Shown: positions 2,737 through 16,205, numbered from the stretch's first letter. The stretch: 32,000 nt of DNA from Pyrodictium occultum (GCF_001462395.1 NZ_LNTB01000001.1:330001-362000), one strand, 5' to 3'. A program made the numbers and translations. Notes: generated from the letters alone by a model not told the origin.

Positions 2737-2801
2737 TCCGGCTAGATCCCTCCCTCATCTACACCGGCCGCGCGTGAATTAGCATTACCCCGCGGGGAGG
2801 G

Positions 2802-2822
2802 GCCCCGGGTTTATCCCGGGGC
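2802..2822. promoter_or_regulatory. Perfect 8-bp inverted repeat (GCCCCGGG-TTTAT-CCCGGGGC) in a divergent intergenic region
   Basis: Read directly: 2802-2809 is the reverse complement of 2815-2822, with an AT-rich 5-nt centre. It lies between the wHTH regulator start (2736) and the small ORF start (2864). Confidence 0.35.
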
Positions 2823-2863
2823 TGTCGCCCCCTGCCCGGGGCTCCCGAGGGTGCCGTCTGGGC

Positions 2864-3112
2864 GTGGTGTACCGCAGGGCTGTCGAGGAGGCCTACTCGA
2901 TCGTACGGGCTGTAGAGGTGGCCTGCGGCTCCACGGCTGAGATGGAGGAGGCTCTCGAGATACTGGAGGAGCTCGTCTCGGGCGCCGCCGGCCTTGATGA
3001 GGCCGCCTACGCTGCAGAGCTTCTCCGCGAGGCTGCCGACGTGCTGCGGGCCCGCGGCTGCCTGGACTGGCACCTCCTGGGCCAGGCCGCCGACATCCTG
3101 GAGCACGCGTAG
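2864..3112 (+). CDS. Small hypothetical helical protein (82 aa)
   Basis: The ORF has the local coding codon style (GAG/CTC/GCC third positions) and a GTG start. I recognise no motif. Confidence 0.4.
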   Translation: MVYRRAVEEAYSIVRAVEVACGSTAEMEEALEILEELVSGAAGLDEAAYAAELLREAADVLRARGCLDWHLLGQAADILEHA

Positions 3113-3197
3113 CAGGGGTCGGCTAACCGCGGCCGCCTCACCGCCTCCCCGGGGCTCGGCTGGGGCCGGGGAGCCGGCCTGCTCGCCATCCCCCGGG

Positions 3198-9959: not shown

Positions 9960-9992
9960 GCCCATCCTCCCCGGGCCTCGGGGAGGATGGGC
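9960..9992. repeat. Perfect 12-13 bp inverted repeat (CCCATCCTCCCC / GGGGAGGATGGG) with a 7-nt spacer
   Basis: Read directly: 9961-9972 is the reverse complement of 9980-9991, and G9960/C9992 extends the pairing. It sits between divergent TATA-like elements (CTTTAAG 9926-9932 for the ABC operon, GGTTAAGAG 10025-10033 for the MFS gene). Confidence 0.9.
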
Positions 9993-10065
9993 GCATAGAC
10001 GGGGGCTGACCCCGGCCCCGCACCGGTTAAGAGCCAGGGGCGGGGCTGGCCCTCGGGGCCGCGTC

Positions 10066-11124: not shown

Positions 11125-11452
11125 AGGCTTGAACGCATCCCCGCGCCCCTGGGGGACGCGGGATGGACTGCGGCTTCAGGACAGCGTTCCCGCCTGGGCG
11201 CCTATGCTTCGCCGGCAGGCGGGTGGACCGGGGGCAACCTCTGCCCCTGGGGCGGCTGGCGGGGCTTGGATGGAGCGGGGAGAGGCTGGAGGAGATGAAC
11301 CTGGTTACGAGGCTTAGCAGGCTGGCAAGCCTCTCGGAGCCCCGGGAGCCCGGCCCGGATCCAGGGGTCGGCAGGGAGTGGGCGTGGCAGACGCCGGCGT
11401 ACAGGCTGGCGGCTGGGAGGCTCCTAGGCCTGGGCCCGGCAGGCTCACCGGG

Positions 11453-11463
11453 ATAAAGTATTA
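11453..11463 (+). promoter_or_regulatory. TATA-like box (ATAAAGTATTA) for the NurA-like gene
   Basis: This is the only AT-rich patch in the GC-rich gap and lies 33-43 nt upstream of GTG 11496. Similar GGATAAAG elements precede other genes here, for example at 26353. Confidence 0.4.
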
Positions 11464-11495
11464 CCCCTGTTCTCCCCGGTTTAGGGCGCCCTGCG

Positions 11496-12836
11496 GTGCC
11501 AAGGCTGGCCGGCGACTGGTTCGTAGACCTCTTCACGAGCGAGGCCGAGAAGCTCATAGAGTCTATCAGGCTGCGGGGCGGCGGCCGGCAGCTTGAGGGG
11601 CTCCCCTCCTACTGGTGGGTGCCTGGGCTCCCCGAGCCTGCCGGGAATAGGCGGGTCGCGGCCGTCGACGGGGGCGGGGGCCTGGAGCCCGCGGGGGGCG
11701 CCGGGGCCCTCTACATAGCCAGGGCCTACGGCTACGTGGAGGCGGGGGAGCCGGAGAGGGGGCTGGAGCTGCGCTACTACCCCGTCCGCGAGTCCAGGGT
11801 GCTGGACGCGCTCCGGAGCTGGCTGGAGCACAGGATAGCTGTGAGGCTGGCCCTGCGCCTGCCGCCGGGGAGCGTGCTGCTAATGGATGGCAGCCTCTGG
11901 GTCACGGTTACCGCCGGGCTGACCGCCCTGGCGAAGCTCGCCAGCCACGGGGCTCAGAGCCTGGGGCTGGTCTACACCGCGCTCCTCAGCGGCTACATGC
12001 TCGCCGAGATAGCGGGGCTCGTGAGGGCCGCGAGGGAGAGGGGCGTAACGGTAGCCTACGTCTCGAAGGACCACGGGTTCAGGGCGCTGAAGGAGAAGGT
12101 GCTCCTGGAGGCGGTGGCGGAGAGGGTGAGGGCGCTCCAGCCCCTCGCCTCGAGGGCGCTCGACTACTACCCGCTAGCCTTCCGGGAGCAGCTGCTGGAG
12201 GCGAGGAGGCTCGTCCCCCACGAGCTGCGCGGCGCGTTCGACGCCGCGCTGGATATGAGCTACCGGGACAGCTTCTTCATAGCCGACGCCGCCGGCCAGG
12301 GCCCGGGGTACAGCTGGGTCCTCCGCATGCCCCCTCCGCTGAGGCTCAGCAGGGCGCTGGCGAGGGGCGGGATCAAGGGCCTGGTAGAGCGCGCGGCCTC
12401 CCGGGCCGAGGCCCTCCTGGCGGGGGAGCCGGAGGCGGAGGAGTTCCGCTCGCTCGCCGAGAGGCTGCCGGGGCTGCTGGACGAGCTACCCTGCAGCAGG
12501 ATGATCTACGTGAGGCTGGGGGCGGGGGATGCCCCGCTCCTCGCCGAGTTCCCCGGAGAGCCGGGCTGCTACTACTCCCCCGGCAGGGTGCTGGAGGAGC
12601 CGGGCGCCCGGGAGGAGGAGCTGGTGGCGGTGCTCCGCGCCGGCTACGCCGGCCCCGAGTACTATAACGTGCAGCTCGTGGCCGCGCACATGAACGCCAC
12701 CCTCACCTCCAGCCAGCTTGCAGGCTACATTAGGCTCCTGGAGCAGCTCGCCGCGGCCCGGGGGCTGCAGCTGCGCCTGGCCAGGAGGAGCATTATGGGC
12801 AGGACGCTGGCCCGGCGGAGGCGCCGCCTCGTCTAG
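11496..12836 (+). CDS. NurA-like (RNase H-fold) nuclease domain protein
   Basis: 446-aa ORF with the NurA-type acidic motif pattern: RRVAAVDGGGG (first strand Asp), a Glu-containing helix (ESRVLDALRSWLEHRIAV), VLLMDGSLWV (DGS motif) and a C-terminal YNVQLVAAHMNATL. Recognised by eye only. Confidence 0.6.
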   Translation: MPRLAGDWFVDLFTSEAEKLIESIRLRGGGRQLEGLPSYWWVPGLPEPAGNRRVAAVDGGGGLEPAGGAGALYIARAYGYVEAGEPERGLELRYYPVRESRVLDALRSWLEHRIAVRLALRLPPGSVLLMDGSLWVTVTAGLTALAKLASHGAQSLGLVYTALLSGYMLAEIAGLVRAARERGVTVAYVSKDHGFRALKEKVLLEAVAERVRALQPLASRALDYYPLAFREQLLEARRLVPHELRGAFDAALDMSYRDSFFIADAAGQGPGYSWVLRMPPPLRLSRALARGGIKGLVERAASRAEALLAGEPEAEEFRSLAERLPGLLDELPCSRMIYVRLGAGDAPLLAEFPGEPGCYYSPGRVLEEPGAREEELVAVLRAGYAGPEYYNVQLVAAHMNATLTSSQLAGYIRLLEQLAAARGLQLRLARRSIMGRTLARRRRRLV

Positions 12837-12884
12837 CCAGGGGATAAGGTCTGGGGCTGCTCTGAGGCCCCGGGGGGCAGGGGC

Positions 12885-13688
12885 TTGGCTGGGGCTAGGA
12901 GGGAGCCCGTCCCGGCTATGCTGCTTCTTCGGGGCCGGGTGCTCGGCGCCCGGGTCCCCAGGGTAGGCTCCCGCTGGCTAGGCGGCCTCATGGTCGAGCT
13001 TGAGACGGGGGCGCGCGTCCACCTCCTCATGCCCGGGGCTATAGCCAGGTGGATGCAGAGGGGCGAGAGGGTCGAGGTGCGCTTCCTGGAGGAGCCCGAG
13101 AACCTTGGAGGCGTGTACGTCGCCCCCAGGGACACGTTCGAGCTTTGGAGGATCTGGGGCGGGGAGGAGGGGGAGGAGAGGATCCAGGTCTGGCCCCTCT
13201 GGAGGAGGGAGGCCCGGCTCGAGCGGGAGAGCGTGCTGGGGGAGAAGGTCTACGAGTACCGCGTCGTCGCCAGGGAGGCTGAGAGCGAGGAGGACTTCAA
13301 GGAGATTGTCGGGCTCGAGCAGTACCACTACGCTAGCAAGGAGGAGGTCGTAGCTATATGGAGGTGCCCGGTCTGCGGCGCCTACGCCGAGGCCAACGTG
13401 CAGCCCACCTGCCCCCGATGCGGGGTGCCGATGAAGCTGCAGGAGATAAGGGGGAGCCTCCCCTCGAGCCGCTTCATGGTGCTCGAGCTCGTCTCCAGGG
13501 AGCCCTACGAGCCGAGGATAGTGGCGTACGTTAGGGTCGACACGCCGATACCCTTGATGCACCGCCGGATAGTCCGCGAGGACGGCAGGGTCGAGATAGA
13601 GAGGATGATAAGGGGAGAAGATGTTCCCCCGGGACTGGTTCCACCCGACCTTCTGGCCCCTGGCCTACGCGAGGAGGGCCGAGCTTAG
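12885..13688 (+). CDS. Fragment 1: N-terminal beta-rich region, GNAT N-terminal half and a CxxC-x11-CxxC zinc ribbon
   Basis: 267-aa ORF with a TTG start (ATG 12918 is an alternative). Zinc ribbon CPVCGAYAEANVQPTCPRCG lies at 13365-13421. FMVLELVS...RIVAYVRVDT looks like GNAT strands beta2-beta3. The last ~20 codons after 13630 look out-of-frame. Confidence 0.55.
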   Translation: MAGARREPVPAMLLLRGRVLGARVPRVGSRWLGGLMVELETGARVHLLMPGAIARWMQRGERVEVRFLEEPENLGGVYVAPRDTFELWRIWGGEEGEERIQVWPLWRREARLERESVLGEKVYEYRVVAREAESEEDFKEIVGLEQYHYASKEEVVAIWRCPVCGAYAEANVQPTCPRCGVPMKLQEIRGSLPSSRFMVLELVSREPYEPRIVAYVRVDTPIPLMHRRIVREDGRVEIERMIRGEDVPPGLVPPDLLAPGLREEGRA

Positions 13689-14286
13689 GAAGAGGTTCCA
13701 GGAGCTGGCGGAGCTCTACGGCTCGAGGAGGATAGCCCGGGCGGCCGTGGGCGAGGAGATAGCGGAGGAGGCGCTCCGCCGCGCCAACACCGCCGCGGCG
13801 AGGATCGCGAGGGTGGTGGTGCACCCCGACTACCGCGGCGACGGCCTCGGCGTCCTAGCGGTTAGGATGGCTCTCGAGTGGATCGCCGAGAGACGGATAC
13901 CCGAGATGAAGAGGAGGAAGCACGTGGTAGAGACCATAGCCCAGATGGCTAGGTACAACCCGTTCTTCGAGAAGGCGGGGTTCCGCTACATGTGGGACAC
14001 CGCGAGCGGCCGCCCAGTGCTCATGTACCCGCTGACCCAGGAGGCTCGGAGGAGGATCGAGGAGTTCCTCGAGAAGGACCCCTACGCCCGCCGCCACGGC
14101 GGCAGGCTGTTCAGGCCCAGGTACGGGAGGGTTGAGCCCCTAAGCTCGCCAGTAAGGCTCGTAAACGTGACCAAGATGTACAGCGGCGAGCTCGACGTCT
14201 CCAGGCTGCCCCCGGGGCTGCAGGAGGTGCTCCGCGCCTTCGGGGCGGAGAGGAGGAGGGGGAGCGCTACGTGCTCCGCAACGTGA
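13621..14286 (+). CDS. Fragment 2: GNAT acetyl-CoA-binding core plus the first strand of the ABC domain
   Basis: RIARVVVHPDYRGDGLGVLAV (motif A, R/Q-x-x-G-x-G/A; 13801-13860), NPFFEKAGFRY (GNAT alpha4), then VRLVNVTKMYSG, typical of the first ABC NBD strand. Confidence 0.6.
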   Translation: MFPRDWFHPTFWPLAYARRAELRKRFQELAELYGSRRIARAAVGEEIAEEALRRANTAAARIARVVVHPDYRGDGLGVLAVRMALEWIAERRIPEMKRRKHVVETIAQMARYNPFFEKAGFRYMWDTASGRPVLMYPLTQEARRRIEEFLEKDPYARRHGGRLFRPRYGRVEPLSSPVRLVNVTKMYSGELDVSRLPPGLQEVLRAFGAERRRGSATCSAT

Positions 14287-14879
14287 ACCTGGAGATAGGG
14301 CCGGGCGAGGTGGTGGCCGTGGTGGGCGCGAGCGGGGCCGGGAAGACCACGCTCCTCCGCATGATAGTCGGCGCCGCGCTGGGGGAGAGCAGCGAGAAGT
14401 ACCGGCCCAGCCAGGGCAGGGTCGAGGTGCCAGGCAACGTCAGGCTCGCCGTCCTCCTGCCCGGCGAGATGGAGCCCGGCTTCGGGGAGGCCCTGCTGGA
14501 GCACGTCGCCAGGAAGATCGGCGACCCCGCCGCTGCGGTGGAGGTGCTCAACGCTGTGGGGCTGAGCGACGCCATCTTCTACCGGGCGAGGTTCGATGAG
14601 CTGTCGACAGGGCAGAAGGAGAGGGCGAGGCTCGCAAGCCTCCTGGCGGAGAGGCCCAACCTCATGATAGTGGACGAGTTCACAGCACATCTAGACAGGC
14701 TGACGGCCCAGAGGGTTGCTAGGAAGCTCGGCGCCCTAGCCCGCCGCGCGGGGATAACGCTCATAGTCTCCACCAACAGGCCGGAGGTGCTCAGGGCGCT
14801 GGCCCCGGACAAGATAGTGCTCGTGGGCTACGGCTCCGCAGCCGTGGTGGAGGAGAGGGGCAGGAAGGCCGGGGCCTAG
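14271..14879 (+). CDS. Fragment 3: ABC-type ATPase nucleotide-binding domain
   Basis: Walker A GASGAGKT (14325-14348), signature LSTGQ, Walker B LMIVDE, D-loop FTAHLD. The H-loop position reads STNRPE (Asn instead of His). There is no adjacent permease. Confidence 0.8.
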   Translation: MLRNVNLEIGPGEVVAVVGASGAGKTTLLRMIVGAALGESSEKYRPSQGRVEVPGNVRLAVLLPGEMEPGFGEALLEHVARKIGDPAAAVEVLNAVGLSDAIFYRARFDELSTGQKERARLASLLAERPNLMIVDEFTAHLDRLTAQRVARKLGALARRAGITLIVSTNRPEVLRALAPDKIVLVGYGSAAVVEERGRKAGA

Positions 14880-16042
14880 CCGCGGCGCCTCCTCTCCTCG
14901 TCTCCCTTCCCGCCGCCCGCCGCGCCCGGCGCCTGGCTGCCGGCCTGCTGGGGGTAGGCGGGCTGCACCGGAGGCGGCTGGGGCTGGTATGGGTAGGGGT
15001 AGGGCTGGGGGCCGGCGGCGGCTGCACCGGAGGCGGCTGGGTAGGCCGGGGACGTCCACCACTGCTGCTGGGGCTGGGGGGCCGCGGGCCATGGCTGCGG
15101 GTACTGCCACGTGGCTGGCGGCGGGGGCTGCTGGGCGGCGAAGGCGCGCTGGTAAGCGGCGCGCAGGTCCTCGTCCAGCAGGTGTAGGTAGATCTGGGTC
15201 ACCTTGATATCGTGGTGGCCTAGCAGCCTCTGCACCACGGGGAGCGGCACGCCGCGGCGGAGCGCCTCGGTGGCGAATGTGTGGCGGAGCACGTGGGGCC
15301 TCACCCTCCTCGGGTCGAGGCCGGCGCGGCGGGCGAGGCTCTTCAGCCTCTTGTAGAGCCCACTGTAGCTTATCCCCAGCAGCGGGTCGTCCGGCCCGAG
15401 GCCGGGGTTCAGGGCTAGCCAGAGGGCCAGGGCCTGCTCCGTTAGGGGCCCGTAGAGGACAACGCGCTCCTCGCCGTACTTGGCGTTCCTCACCCTTATC
15501 TCCCGCCTAGCCGTGTCTATATCGCGTAGCCGGAGCCCTACCGCCTCCTGGGCGCGGAGCCCGGTCTCGAAGAGGAGCGCCACTATCAGGAGGTCCAGCG
15601 GGTCGCGGGCCGCGTTGAGGAGCCTCTCAACCTCCTCCGGGCGGAGCGCCTCGATCCTGGGGCTCCTGGGCTTCCTCACCACGGGGACCTTAACCGGGAG
15701 GCCCAGCCACTCGAGGAAGCCACGGAGGAAGAGCGTGTAGTAGTGCATCGTTGTCTGCCTCTCCCTCCTCTCGTCGAGGGACCCGCCGCCGGGGCTCCTG
15801 GGCCTCCTGAGCCCCCGGGTGAGACGTTCGTATATCCAGGCTGAGACGTCGCTGCTCGTCACCTCGCGGAGAGGCTTCCCGGCTATGAAGTCTAGGAAGT
15901 CGCTTATTGCCGCCCGGTACGCCTTCACGGTCTTCGGGCTGGCGCCGGCGGCGGCGAGCGCTGCGAGGAAGGCCTCCATCGCCTCCCGGTTGCTCCTCTC
16001 GAGCAGCCCCGGCGGGGGCGGCGGGAGGTCGAAGCGTGTCAT
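14876..16042 (-). CDS. xerA: Tyrosine recombinase, XerA/XerC/XerD-like, with an 87-aa P/Q/Y/W-rich C-terminal extension
   Basis: N-terminal SAM-like domain (SPKTVKAYRAAISDFLDF). Catalytic residues ETGLR, HVLRHTFAT, LGHHDIKVTQIYLHL (R..HxxR..H..Y). ATG 16042 (MTRFDL) is preferred; the track ORF extends to 16159. The stop shares CTAG with the convergent ABC fragment. Confidence 0.8.
   Translation of the reverse strand: MTRFDLPPPPPGLLERSNREAMEAFLAALAAAGASPKTVKAYRAAISDFLDFIAGKPLREVTSSDVSAWIYERLTRGLRRPRSPGGGSLDERRERQTTMHYYTLFLRGFLEWLGLPVKVPVVRKPRSPRIEALRPEEVERLLNAARDPLDLLIVALLFETGLRAQEAVGLRLRDIDTARREIRVRNAKYGEERVVLYGPLTEQALALWLALNPGLGPDDPLLGISYSGLYKRLKSLARRAGLDPRRVRPHVLRHTFATEALRRGVPLPVVQRLLGHHDIKVTQIYLHLLDEDLRAAYQRAFAAQQPPPPATWQYPQPWPAAPQPQQQWWTSPAYPAASGAAAAGPQPYPYPYQPQPPPVQPAYPQQAGSQAPGAAGGGKGDEERRRRG
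14961..15041. repeat. 22-nt exact direct repeat (GGCTGCACCGGAGGCGGCTGGG) at 14961-14982 and 15020-15041, within degenerate TACCC-type micro-repeats
   Basis: Read directly. The copies are offset by 59 nt (not a multiple of 3), so they are translated in two different frames of the recombinase tail (QPQPPPVQPAYP versus YPAASGAAAAGP). Confidence 0.9.
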
Positions 16043-16205
16043 CGCGCAGCCCACCCCTATAGCTTGCTGCCTCGTCCCGGGGCCGCCGGGCTGCGGCTCC
16101 ATAGCTACCCGGGTAACACTCCGCCCCGGCCTCGCCGGGATTGCGGGGCCCGCCCACATGCTTACGCGATTCTAACGTTCCAACATTTAAGATGAAGCGT
16201 TATGC

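Follow-up and report, generated by a model that had tools for sequence, protein, structure and literature searches.

We analysed a 32,000-nt stretch of the Pyrodictium occultum genome (GCF_001462395.1 NZ_LNTB01000001.1:330001-362000), hereafter called the window, and in it the locus at 11453-14879, which holds two genes on the same strand (Table 1). Gene 1 is an open reading frame (ORF) for a NurA-like protein (11496-12836), and gene 2 encodes a fusion between a GNAT acetyltransferase domain and an ABC ATPase domain, referred to below as the GNAT-ABC or fusion gene (12885-14879). A first-pass annotation of this DNA had read the pair as a self-contained nuclease-ATPase-acetyltransferase module. 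The reading that we favour, with a probability of about 0.72, is that these are two separate genes, neighbours by shared ancestry and not a functional module. Related loci carry the labels L001 (Hyperthermus butylicus), L013 (P. delaneyi), L016 (Pyrofollis japonicus), L019 (Pyrolobus fumarii), L020 (Desulfurococcaceae MEX13E), L021 (a bacterial contig) and L023 (a metagenome contig). L002 is the Logan assembly of an independent read set, DRR667394, which was compared base by base with the window.

Table 1. Features of the locus and of related loci. Positions are counted from the first letter of the window, unless a locus label precedes them; aa, amino acids.
Feature	Position	Strand	Remarks
Gap upstream of gene 1	11125-11495		371 nt
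97-aa ORF in this gap	11163-11456		Called as a gene in the Logan assembly
Conserved promoter-proximal motif ATAAAGTATTACC	11453-11465	+	One mismatch relative to the family core
Same motif, H. butylicus	L001 7958-7970
Same motif, P. delaneyi	L013 4932-4944
Same motif, Pyrofollis	L016 9974-9986
Gene 1, NurA-family paralog, 446 aa, CF15_01865	11496-12836	+	AlphaFold2 (AF2) model, Foldseek, Pfam scores of orthologs, invariant residues
Gene 1 motif AAVDGGGG	11658-11681	+
Predicted metal ligand D58	11667-11669	+
Predicted metal ligand E111	11826-11828	+
Gene 1 motif LLMDGSLW	11877-11900	+
Predicted metal ligand D131	11886-11888	+
Gene 1 motif LVAAHMNA	12675-12698	+
Predicted metal ligand H398	12687-12689	+
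Gene 2, frameshifted ortholog of the family ‘ABC-type ATPase with predicted acetyltransferase domain’	12885-14879	+	Three ORFs, Pfam, alignment
Gene 2, first ORF	12885-13688	+	Frame 0
Zn-ribbon insert CPVC-x11-CPRC	13365-13421	+	In the N-terminal arm of the GNAT fold
Frameshift 1, GGGG run	13612-13615	+	One extra G relative to intact orthologs; inside the GNAT region
Gene 2, second ORF	13621-14286	+	Frame +1
GNAT acetyl-CoA-binding strand and P-loop RVVVHPDYRGDGLG	13810-13851	+	Frame +1
NPFFEKAGF of the GNAT fold	13957-13983	+	Frame +1
First beta-strand of the ABC domain, VRLVNVTKMY	14152-14181	+
Frameshift 2, G5 run	14258-14262	+	One G short relative to intact orthologs; between the first beta-strand of the ABC domain and Walker A
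Gene 2, third ORF	14271-14879	+	Frame 0
ABC ATPase core	14325-14678	+
Walker A GASGAGKT	14325-14348	+
Signature LSTGQ	14601-14615	+
Walker B LMIVDE	14661-14678	+
H-loop of the ABC domain	14769-14789	+
XerA-type tyrosine recombinase	14876-16159	-	Convergent with gene 2, stops overlap by 4 nt
Low-complexity tail of the recombinase	14876-15150	-	About 90 aa, C-terminal, Pro/Gln/Tyr-rich
GNAT-ABC ortholog, H. butylicus	L001 10060-12055		Frameshifted
Gene between the pair, H. butylicus	L001 9382-10002	+	PBP gene (PEBP-family)
Genes between the pair, Pyrofollis	L016 11369-13550	-	Two genes
Genes between the pair, P. delaneyi	L013 6259-9836	-	Three genes
Gene between GNAT-ABC gene and xerA, P. delaneyi	L013 12090-13280		Protein of about 400 aa
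Gene between GNAT-ABC gene and xerA, Pyrofollis	L016 15715-16953		Protein of about 400 aa
Fusion gene and herA-mre11-rad50 cluster, Pyrolobus	L019 8001-16526
ASCH-fused GNAT-ABC member, bacterial contig	L021 2039-4336		765 aa

NurA is a Mn2+-dependent 5'-3' exo/endonuclease that forms a ring-shaped dimer, and its gene is usually in an operon with, or adjacent to, the gene of the HerA ATPase, often together with Mre11/Rad50. The 446-aa ORF announced by the first-pass annotation was found as described, as were all the motifs quoted for both genes, at consistent coordinates, and its product is 100% identical to P. occultum CF15_01865. An AF2 model was built from a 33-sequence alignment (pLDDT 88.8, pTM 0.86) and compared with the PDB using Foldseek. 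The top match was S. solfataricus NurA (2ygk_A, E 1.7e-11, probability 1.00, TM-score on the target 0.61). It was also the sole strong one, the next being RNase HI, Argonaute PIWI and EndoV folds. Orthologs score above the Pfam NurA cut-off of 21 bits (PF09376; 41.3 bits for P0004, 65% identical, and 35.7 bits for P0010, 58% identical), and the PF09376 assignment is precomputed on 25 of the 33 gene 1 homologs. Four residues, D58, E111, D131 and H398, are invariant across these 33 homologs. They reproduce the order and spacing of the metal ligands of P. furiosus NurA (Asp51, Glu105, Asp126 and His411; PMC3300031), the comparison being one of sequence positions. As modelled, gene 1 is a NurA-family protein with an RNase H-like fold, of a length similar to that of P. 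furiosus NurA, and conservation of the D-E-D-H set indicates that this copy is probably an active nuclease.

Some searches speak against this assignment. The window protein itself gave no NurA match against Pfam at E≤0.1, and profile and single-sequence searches of the PDB sequences with gene 1 retrieved no solved NurA. Nor did hhalign match the gene 1 family profile to the canonical NurA of H. butylicus. Because the PDB-sequence searches and hhalign returned nothing, the family is tied to NurA by its fold and by the Pfam profile only.

The gene 1 family is small, with 33 clusters that all come from Pyrodictiaceae/Desulfurococcales-type genomes and metagenome-assembled genomes (MAGs). The first-pass annotation had described gene 1 as an orphan NurA. 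This holds for its surroundings, no HerA, Mre11 or Rad50 homolog being present in the 32-kb window, but not for the genome, where the canonical NurA, CF15_07000, is encoded on the same 1.5-Mb contig. A HerA(DUF87)-NurA pair is found 5-9 kb from the gene 1 ortholog in H. butylicus and Pyrofollis japonicus, and a related MAG has a HerA-type gene and a 312-aa gene at a similar distance, so that a HerA-type gene lies within this range in 3 of 14 loci. All-against-all clustering of the neighbours in the 14 NurA-like loci revealed no gene, besides the paralog itself, common to all. Gene 1 is thus a second, accessory and lineage-restricted NurA paralog, orphan only locally. It differs from the known NurA proteins by the lack of an adjacent HerA, Mre11 or Rad50, by being an extra copy without detectable sequence similarity to its canonical paralog or to solved NurA structures, by its restriction to Pyrodictiaceae-type genomes and MAGs, and by a conserved palindromic motif of its own upstream of the gene.

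The TATA-like box reported by the first-pass annotation at 11453-11463 is a real AT-rich stretch, and forms part of this motif. Across the family, its consensus reads WTAWGGTAWTACC and contains a near-palindromic core, GGTAWTACC; the element is also written as ATAAGGTATTACC. In each of 12 loci the exact core was seen a single time, directly upstream of the NurA-like match. The window copy carries one mismatch, and an exact core is found nowhere else in the 32-kb window. In the 11 loci measured, the motif is placed 47-121 nt upstream of the conserved GDWF codon of the gene 1 orthologs, and four further metagenome contigs show the same placement. It is conserved ahead of all NurA-like orthologs for which upstream sequence is available, with sites in L004-L011, L017, L022, L025, L026 and L028 besides those of Table 1. 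Divergent orthologs have degenerate versions (AGTAATACC, AGTATTACG, GGTAACACC), and in L006 and L008 a second degenerate copy is found 3 nt downstream of the first. In the loci compared, neither the fusion gene nor XerA or HerA-NurA was preceded by the motif, which was seen at no other place in them. From its sequence, it is probably a TATA-like element combined with an operator for a dimeric regulator, overlapping the TATA region. A bacterial GntR-type operator, TGGTAtTACCA, shares the core (PMC6731338), a resemblance that we take only as a lead. Given such a dedicated motif, gene 1 would be an independent transcription unit.

The 97-aa ORF of the gap upstream of gene 1 has no Pfam or PADLOC match, and in P. 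delaneyi an unrelated 193-aa gene occupies the corresponding position. That this gap is the longest non-coding one of the window, as had been stated, is not established, the interval 2737-3197 spanning 461 nt without an ORF of at least 150 aa (only unverified short ORFs).

Gene 2 encodes an N-terminal beta/OB-like domain, a GNAT domain with an inserted Zn ribbon, and a single C-terminal ABC nucleotide-binding domain. This is the product that the first-pass annotation had reconstructed, and Pfam, the structural model and fold searches confirm its domains, after two repairs of the reading frame that are described below. The repaired product counts 653 aa from the ATG at 12918, and conservation of the N-terminus suggests the TTG at 12885 as the true start. 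Pfam recognises the GNAT region (PF13508, E 1.5e-6; PF00583, E 1.4e-5) and the ABC domain (PF00005, E 7.5e-19). The model of the N-terminal 413 residues (pLDDT 82.1) shows a beta-rich domain at about 13-130, a GNAT fold interrupted by the Zn ribbon, and a helical insert. In fold searches, the beta-rich domain gave weak matches to Mop/TOBE-like and OB folds, and the matches of the GNAT fold were led by PatZ, NAT9 and NAT10/Kre33. Within the Zn ribbon, C160, C163 and C175 (numbering of P0035) are invariant, and the fourth ligand is Cys, Asp or His in relatives; the ribbon has weak rubredoxin-like and Zn-ribbon matches in Pfam/NCBIfam, and short strands at 156-168 in the model. The pattern H-P-D-Y-R-x-D-G-x-G is invariant in the fusion family, its acetyl-CoA P-loop reading YRGDGLG, and at least 90-98% of the 128 family members have the ABC motifs GASGAGKT, LSTGQKER and DE.

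At the H-loop of the ABC domain, P. occultum has an Asn (STNR), in a column conserved to at least 90% in the 128-member alignment. This replacement of His by Asn is typical of the crenarchaeal clade of the family. The distant members P0171 and P0180 read VVNR, and His is found (THR/SHR) in three distant members, P0157 (in a cluster with Methanopyrus-named members), P0165 (Oceanithermus-named) and P0162 (bacterial, ASCH-fused).

Intact proteins of 620-696 aa from P. delaneyi, Pyrolobus fumarii, Aeropyrum, Staphylothermus-type MAGs and many Desulfurococcales MAGs share 63-88% identity with the repaired product, over 94-100% of its length. Several of them are named ‘ABC-type ATPase with predicted acetyltransferase domain’ (COG2401-type) by JGI, and NCBI calls members of the family ‘GNAT family N-acetyltransferase’. 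The P. occultum product shares with this family the three-part architecture and, after repair, all the conserved residues. The fusion family yielded no fewer than 120 clusters with identities of 63% and above, compared to 33 clusters for the gene 1 family, and the members encountered come mostly from hyperthermophilic archaea. Its N-terminal part defines a narrow family, which has 44 representatives in a set of 1.84 billion proteins clustered at 50%, and whose named members belong to a Thermoprotei MAG, Methanopyrus, a euryarchaeal MAG and Oceanithermus. We found no experimental study or relevant publication on the fusion family, nor any biochemical work on the gene 1 family, so that the earlier statement that the function of the pair was never tested seems right.

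The P. occultum copy differs from these relatives in being split into ORFs of 267, 221 and 202 aa. We set the positions of the frameshifts by comparison with the H. butylicus and P. delaneyi orthologs. A single product requires the removal of one G in the first run and the addition of one G in the second. Around frameshift 1, frame 0 reads ...ERMIRGED and frame +1 GEKMFPRDWF, and the H. butylicus sequence is continuous as MIREKVFPRDWF. Around frameshift 2, frame +1 reads AFGAERRRGSAT up to a stop and frame 0 reads GERYVLRNVNLEI, where H. butylicus is continuous as AFGAERRLVERYVLRDVNIEV. Once repaired, the product has none of 202 columns altered (columns conserved to at least 95% among 127 relatives). 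The ratio of non-synonymous to synonymous substitution rates (dN/dS) relative to P. delaneyi is about 0.07 (0.06-0.09) in all three segments, including the out-of-frame one. On both counts, the lesion looks recent. A relative-rate comparison gave 20 lineage-specific substitutions in P. occultum and 11 in P. delaneyi, raw counts that we read as a small excess. The H. butylicus ortholog is also frameshifted, at other sites (after LAVEWIK and after LTEEA, and probably a third time near the N-terminus), and has 4 substitutions at columns conserved to at least 95%. This points to an independent inactivation, and looks like early decay.

Is gene 2 really broken in the organism? Sequencing or assembly errors in homopolymer G runs would leave the gene intact, and both sites are indeed G runs in DNA of 70% GC, in a gene with no other sign of decay. 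Local errors do exist, the window and L002 disagreeing at 9976-10037 and 15020-15052. However, the whole of 12885-14879 is base-for-base identical in L002, which was assembled independently and differs from the window at 19 other sites. Recurrence of both frameshifts in that assembly makes errors unlikely, and as the H. butylicus gene is disrupted in the same manner at other positions, we consider this explanation very improbable. The split gene might also still function, through three polypeptides assembling by themselves or through ribosomal or transcriptional slippage at the G runs. The clean state of the sequence, with its intact conserved columns and low dN/dS in all segments, would fit recoding or assembled fragments, and weighs against a dead gene. 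So do the start codons located exactly at both junctions (ATG 13621 and GTG 14271, each after a purine-rich GGAGG-like stretch), and the opposite signs of the shifts, which bring the last third back into the original frame. Yet each break interrupts a domain, the first in the GNAT region and the second in the ABC domain, between its beta-1 and Walker A. Runs of only four and five G are short for slippage, and the sequence has no evident slippery heptamer of the canonical kind. Furthermore, none of the best 120 matches listed, several of which are from other species, is broken at these sites, and the H. butylicus gene, broken elsewhere and deviating at four conserved columns, has the look of decay rather than of a conserved recoding signal. 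Continued function is therefore unlikely in our view, though less so than an assembly artefact. We conclude that P. occultum gene 2, recently broken by two 1-nt indels in G runs, is probably non-functional, and at best expressed as fragments.

We then asked how the two genes are arranged in other genomes. They are 48 nt apart in the P. occultum window and about 210 nt apart in L023, where the fusion gene is intact, with nothing between them in both cases. The distance is 0.8 kb in H. butylicus, with one gene in between, about 0.8 kb in L005 and L027, 2.4 kb in Pyrofollis and 3.7 kb in P. delaneyi, the intervening genes of these last two being on the opposite strand (Table 1). The five linked loci placed in the NurA-like tree fall in one clade (L023 and L027 are not in the tree), so that the linkage counts as one historical event. 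In other clades, no fusion gene follows the NurA-like gene within 5-10 kb (L004, L006-L009 and L017) or, in L026, within the 1.7 kb of downstream flank. Reciprocally, the NurA-like gene is absent at the fusion-gene loci of Aeropyrum, Pyrolobus and MEX13E. The conserved neighbourhood that the first-pass annotation proposed to look for across genomes thus does not recur in independent lineages. This suggests one juxtaposition event that was inherited and repeatedly interrupted, and resembles neutral gene-order conservation.

In Pyrofollis, the intervening genes encode a HEC-01A/PtuA/AriA-like ABC ATPase and a mad4-like protein of 170 aa, and in P. delaneyi they are an SBP_bac_5 gene and two unknown genes. 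A 454-aa ORF located after Pyrolobus rad50 was checked as a possible NurA paralog, and is not one. A radical-SAM gene lies immediately upstream of the Pyrolobus fusion gene, and another is found near the MEX13E ortholog (L020). Between the GNAT-ABC gene and xerA, P. delaneyi and Pyrofollis encode a protein of about 400 aa (67% identical between the two), with a weak C-terminal match to nucleoside 2-deoxyribosyltransferases (E about 1e-3). It is missing from P. occultum and H. butylicus, the two genomes with a frameshifted GNAT-ABC gene. As a general partner of gene 2 this protein was rejected, not being encoded beside the fusion gene in Aeropyrum, Pyrolobus and MEX13E, and being unrelated to the product of the gene downstream in Aeropyrum.

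Several observations weigh against mere neighbourhood by descent. In the Pyrodictium/Hyperthermus/Pyrofollis clade the two genes stay co-oriented and within 4 kb of each other across 58-80% protein identity, and they are directly adjacent in both P. occultum and L023. Such persistent proximity leaves room for a facultative functional link within that clade, which we nevertheless regard as improbable. In Pyrolobus, the fusion gene is 1.2 kb upstream of a herA-mre11-rad50 cluster, without an adjacent nurA, which might be the sign of a loose tie to DNA-end processing. A stronger version of the link is the module itself, in which the NurA-like nuclease and the GNAT-ABC protein would be one nucleic-acid-directed machine, the ABC ATPase replacing HerA as motor or clamp, for DNA-end processing, defence or acetylation-coupled cleavage. 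It would account for the co-orientation and the short distances, from 48 nt in the window and about 210 nt in L023 to less than 4 kb in H. butylicus, P. delaneyi, Pyrofollis and L005/L027. Soluble ABC ATPases partner with nucleases in known systems, and PADLOC detects a partial similarity of the ABC domain to mad3, GajA and PtuA. Nevertheless, synteny is restricted to one sub-clade, and the first-pass annotation had itself named the absence of synteny in other genomes as an argument against the module. Within that clade opposite-strand and unrelated genes are tolerated between the pair, and outside it six NurA-like loci with 5-10 kb of downstream sequence have no fusion gene, L026 being likewise devoid of it within 1.7 kb. 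The fusion family has a much wider distribution, and in Aeropyrum, Pyrolobus and MEX13E its gene is present where the paralog is not. The conserved promoter motif belongs to gene 1 alone, and in the two genomes where the fusion gene is frameshifted, the NurA paralog is intact. Finally, the paralog has no PADLOC match and the neighbourhood is metabolic. We therefore hold a module of this kind, too, to be a rather remote prospect, and two separate genes with a common gene order inherited in one clade remain the preferred explanation.

A defence island, or an integrated mobile element bounded by a tyrosine recombinase, was also considered. The adjacent site-specific recombinase noted in the first-pass annotation is present, and abuts the pair. 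It is XerA-like (NF040815 XerA_Arch, 206.7 bits, just below the cut-off of 220; PF00589, E 1.8e-30), and sits at the corresponding place in H. butylicus, P. delaneyi and Pyrofollis, four genomes with P. occultum; a mobile-element setting is not supported. Extra genes do occur nearby, namely the HEC-01A/PtuA/AriA-like ATPase and mad4-like genes inserted between the pair in Pyrofollis, and, in P. delaneyi and Pyrofollis, the gene for the protein of about 400 aa whose C-terminus weakly resembles nucleoside 2-deoxyribosyltransferases. However, the inserted genes differ between genomes, which points to a variable spot and not to one element. Neither Rfam nor tRNA scans of the 32-kb window found anything, GC content is about 70% over the whole window with no local anomaly seen, and the flanks contain transporters, acetyl-CoA synthetase and genes of the arginine/aspartate pathways. 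PADLOC gave 0 matches for the NurA paralog, and for gene 2 only partial matches within the ABC domain (mad3, 1.8e-29; AriA, 2.6e-7; GajA, 1e-4; PtuA, about 2e-3). What gene 2 shares with Gabija GajA, Septu PtuA, PARIS AriA and OLD proteins is a soluble ABC-type ATPase, with a similarity of profiles limited to part of the ABC domain. Unlike the Gabija, Septu, PARIS, OLD and MADS systems, it has no Toprim or HNH nuclease domain, no partner genes are found in the window, and the gene 2 family shows housekeeping-level conservation in a metabolic neighbourhood. The defence setting proposed earlier thus did not hold up, and an island or mobile element is the least credible of the explanations considered, with hardly any weight left.

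If the genes are separate, they may act as follows. Gene 1 would most likely be a two-metal nuclease of RNase H fold, dependent on Mn2+, that degrades DNA from its ends by means of D58, E111, D131 and H398, as judged from the model and the conserved residues. It would be transcribed from its own promoter with WTAWGGTAWTACC, the site of the regulator probably overlapping the TATA box, and any motor that it requires, such as a HerA-type ATPase, would be supplied in trans from elsewhere in the genome. As for the intact relatives of gene 2, they would most plausibly dimerise through their ATP-bound ABC domains, and the ATP cycle would gate the acetyl-CoA-dependent acetylation of a macromolecule held by the N-terminal domain. 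RNA is our leading guess for this substrate, and a protein the alternative.

RNA acetylation is prominent in hyperthermophiles, and a comparison of gene 2 with the known RNA acetyltransferases TmcA/NAT10/Kre33 is instructive. Both have an NTPase domain fused to a GNAT domain, and the GNAT model of gene 2 matches that of NAT10/Kre33 with E 5e-4 to 2e-3; likeness at the level of the TmcA/NAT10 profile is weak (PF13718, E 0.015, 15.1 bits, below the cut-off of 24.6). They differ in that TmcA/NAT10/Kre33 have a RecD-like helicase N-terminal to the GNAT domain, where gene 2 has an ABC domain C-terminal to it. Gene 2 also has no Pfam match to DUF1726, to the helicase or to the tRNA-binding C-domain, and has another N-terminal beta domain and a Zn ribbon. 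At most, the two families may share a working principle, not membership. With the N-terminal 413 residues, the fold search placed a Pat-type protein lysine acetyltransferase, E. coli PatZ, first overall (E 2.7e-4), and the GNAT domain of S. lividans PAT was matched too. TM-scores are low (0.14-0.27), and PatZ has an NDP-forming acyl-CoA-synthetase-like domain where gene 2 has an ABC domain, so that the likeness is essentially that of the GNAT fold. The member found on the bacterial contig has an additional C-terminal ASCH domain (PF04266, E 2e-6), and genes of sigma-70 and RluD type lie close to it. Removal or hydrolysis of N4-acetylcytidine (ac4C) has been reported for ASCH proteins (PMC6972931; bioRxiv 10.64898/2026.02.27.708502). 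Together, the NAT10-like GNAT matches and the ASCH fusion are a weak pointer to RNA acetylation. Against it, one should consider that the acetylation substrate is pure inference, and that the ASCH fusion is one cluster with a single member. A wider proposal is that the fusion family is an unrecognised ATP-gated acetyltransferase, acting on RNA (as a writer of the ac4C type, separate from TmcA/NAT10) or on a protein that binds nucleic acids, dispensable in culture in view of its independent inactivation in two cultured Pyrodictiaceae, and maybe loosely coupled to the NurA paralog in the Pyrodictium/Hyperthermus clade. Taken as a whole this proposal is doubtful, though less so than the module or a still functional P. 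occultum gene 2.

As the pairing appears to be an inherited gene order, it has little importance as a module. What is new here is the recognition of gene 1 as a NurA-family member with a private promoter motif; the gene 2 family was already known, but is unstudied. The most valuable leads are thus the uncharacterised GNAT-ABC family and the conserved regulatory element. The latter offers a handle on a putative archaeal regulator, and on the circumstances in which a second NurA is used. The fusion family, with its intact catalytic motifs and no published biochemistry that we could find, stands out as a clean candidate for an ATP-dependent acetyltransferase of hyperthermophiles, being 63-88% identical across Desulfurococcales and found also in Methanopyrus, a Thermoprotei MAG, Oceanithermus and one bacterial MAG. 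Independent frameshifts of a constrained gene in two type strains bear on its dispensability in culture, and call for caution in reading its function from the P. occultum copy.

Other genes of the window encode glycosyltransferase, radical SAM and methyltransferase enzymes, phosphopantothenate synthetase, an NMT1-type ABC importer and an MFS transporter, as well as acetyl-CoA synthetase, carbamoyl-phosphate synthase, enzymes of arginine and of the aspartate family, and a PIN_5 protein. The disagreements between the window and L002 mentioned above are clustered indels and substitutions in two GC-rich stretches, which implies that at least one assembly is locally wrong, or that the cultures differ. 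Those at 9976-10037 alter the called N-terminus of the MFS gene (388 aa in the window and 352 aa in L002), and those at 15020-15052 alter the C-terminal tail of XerA, giving a protein of 427 aa in the window and 388 aa in L002.

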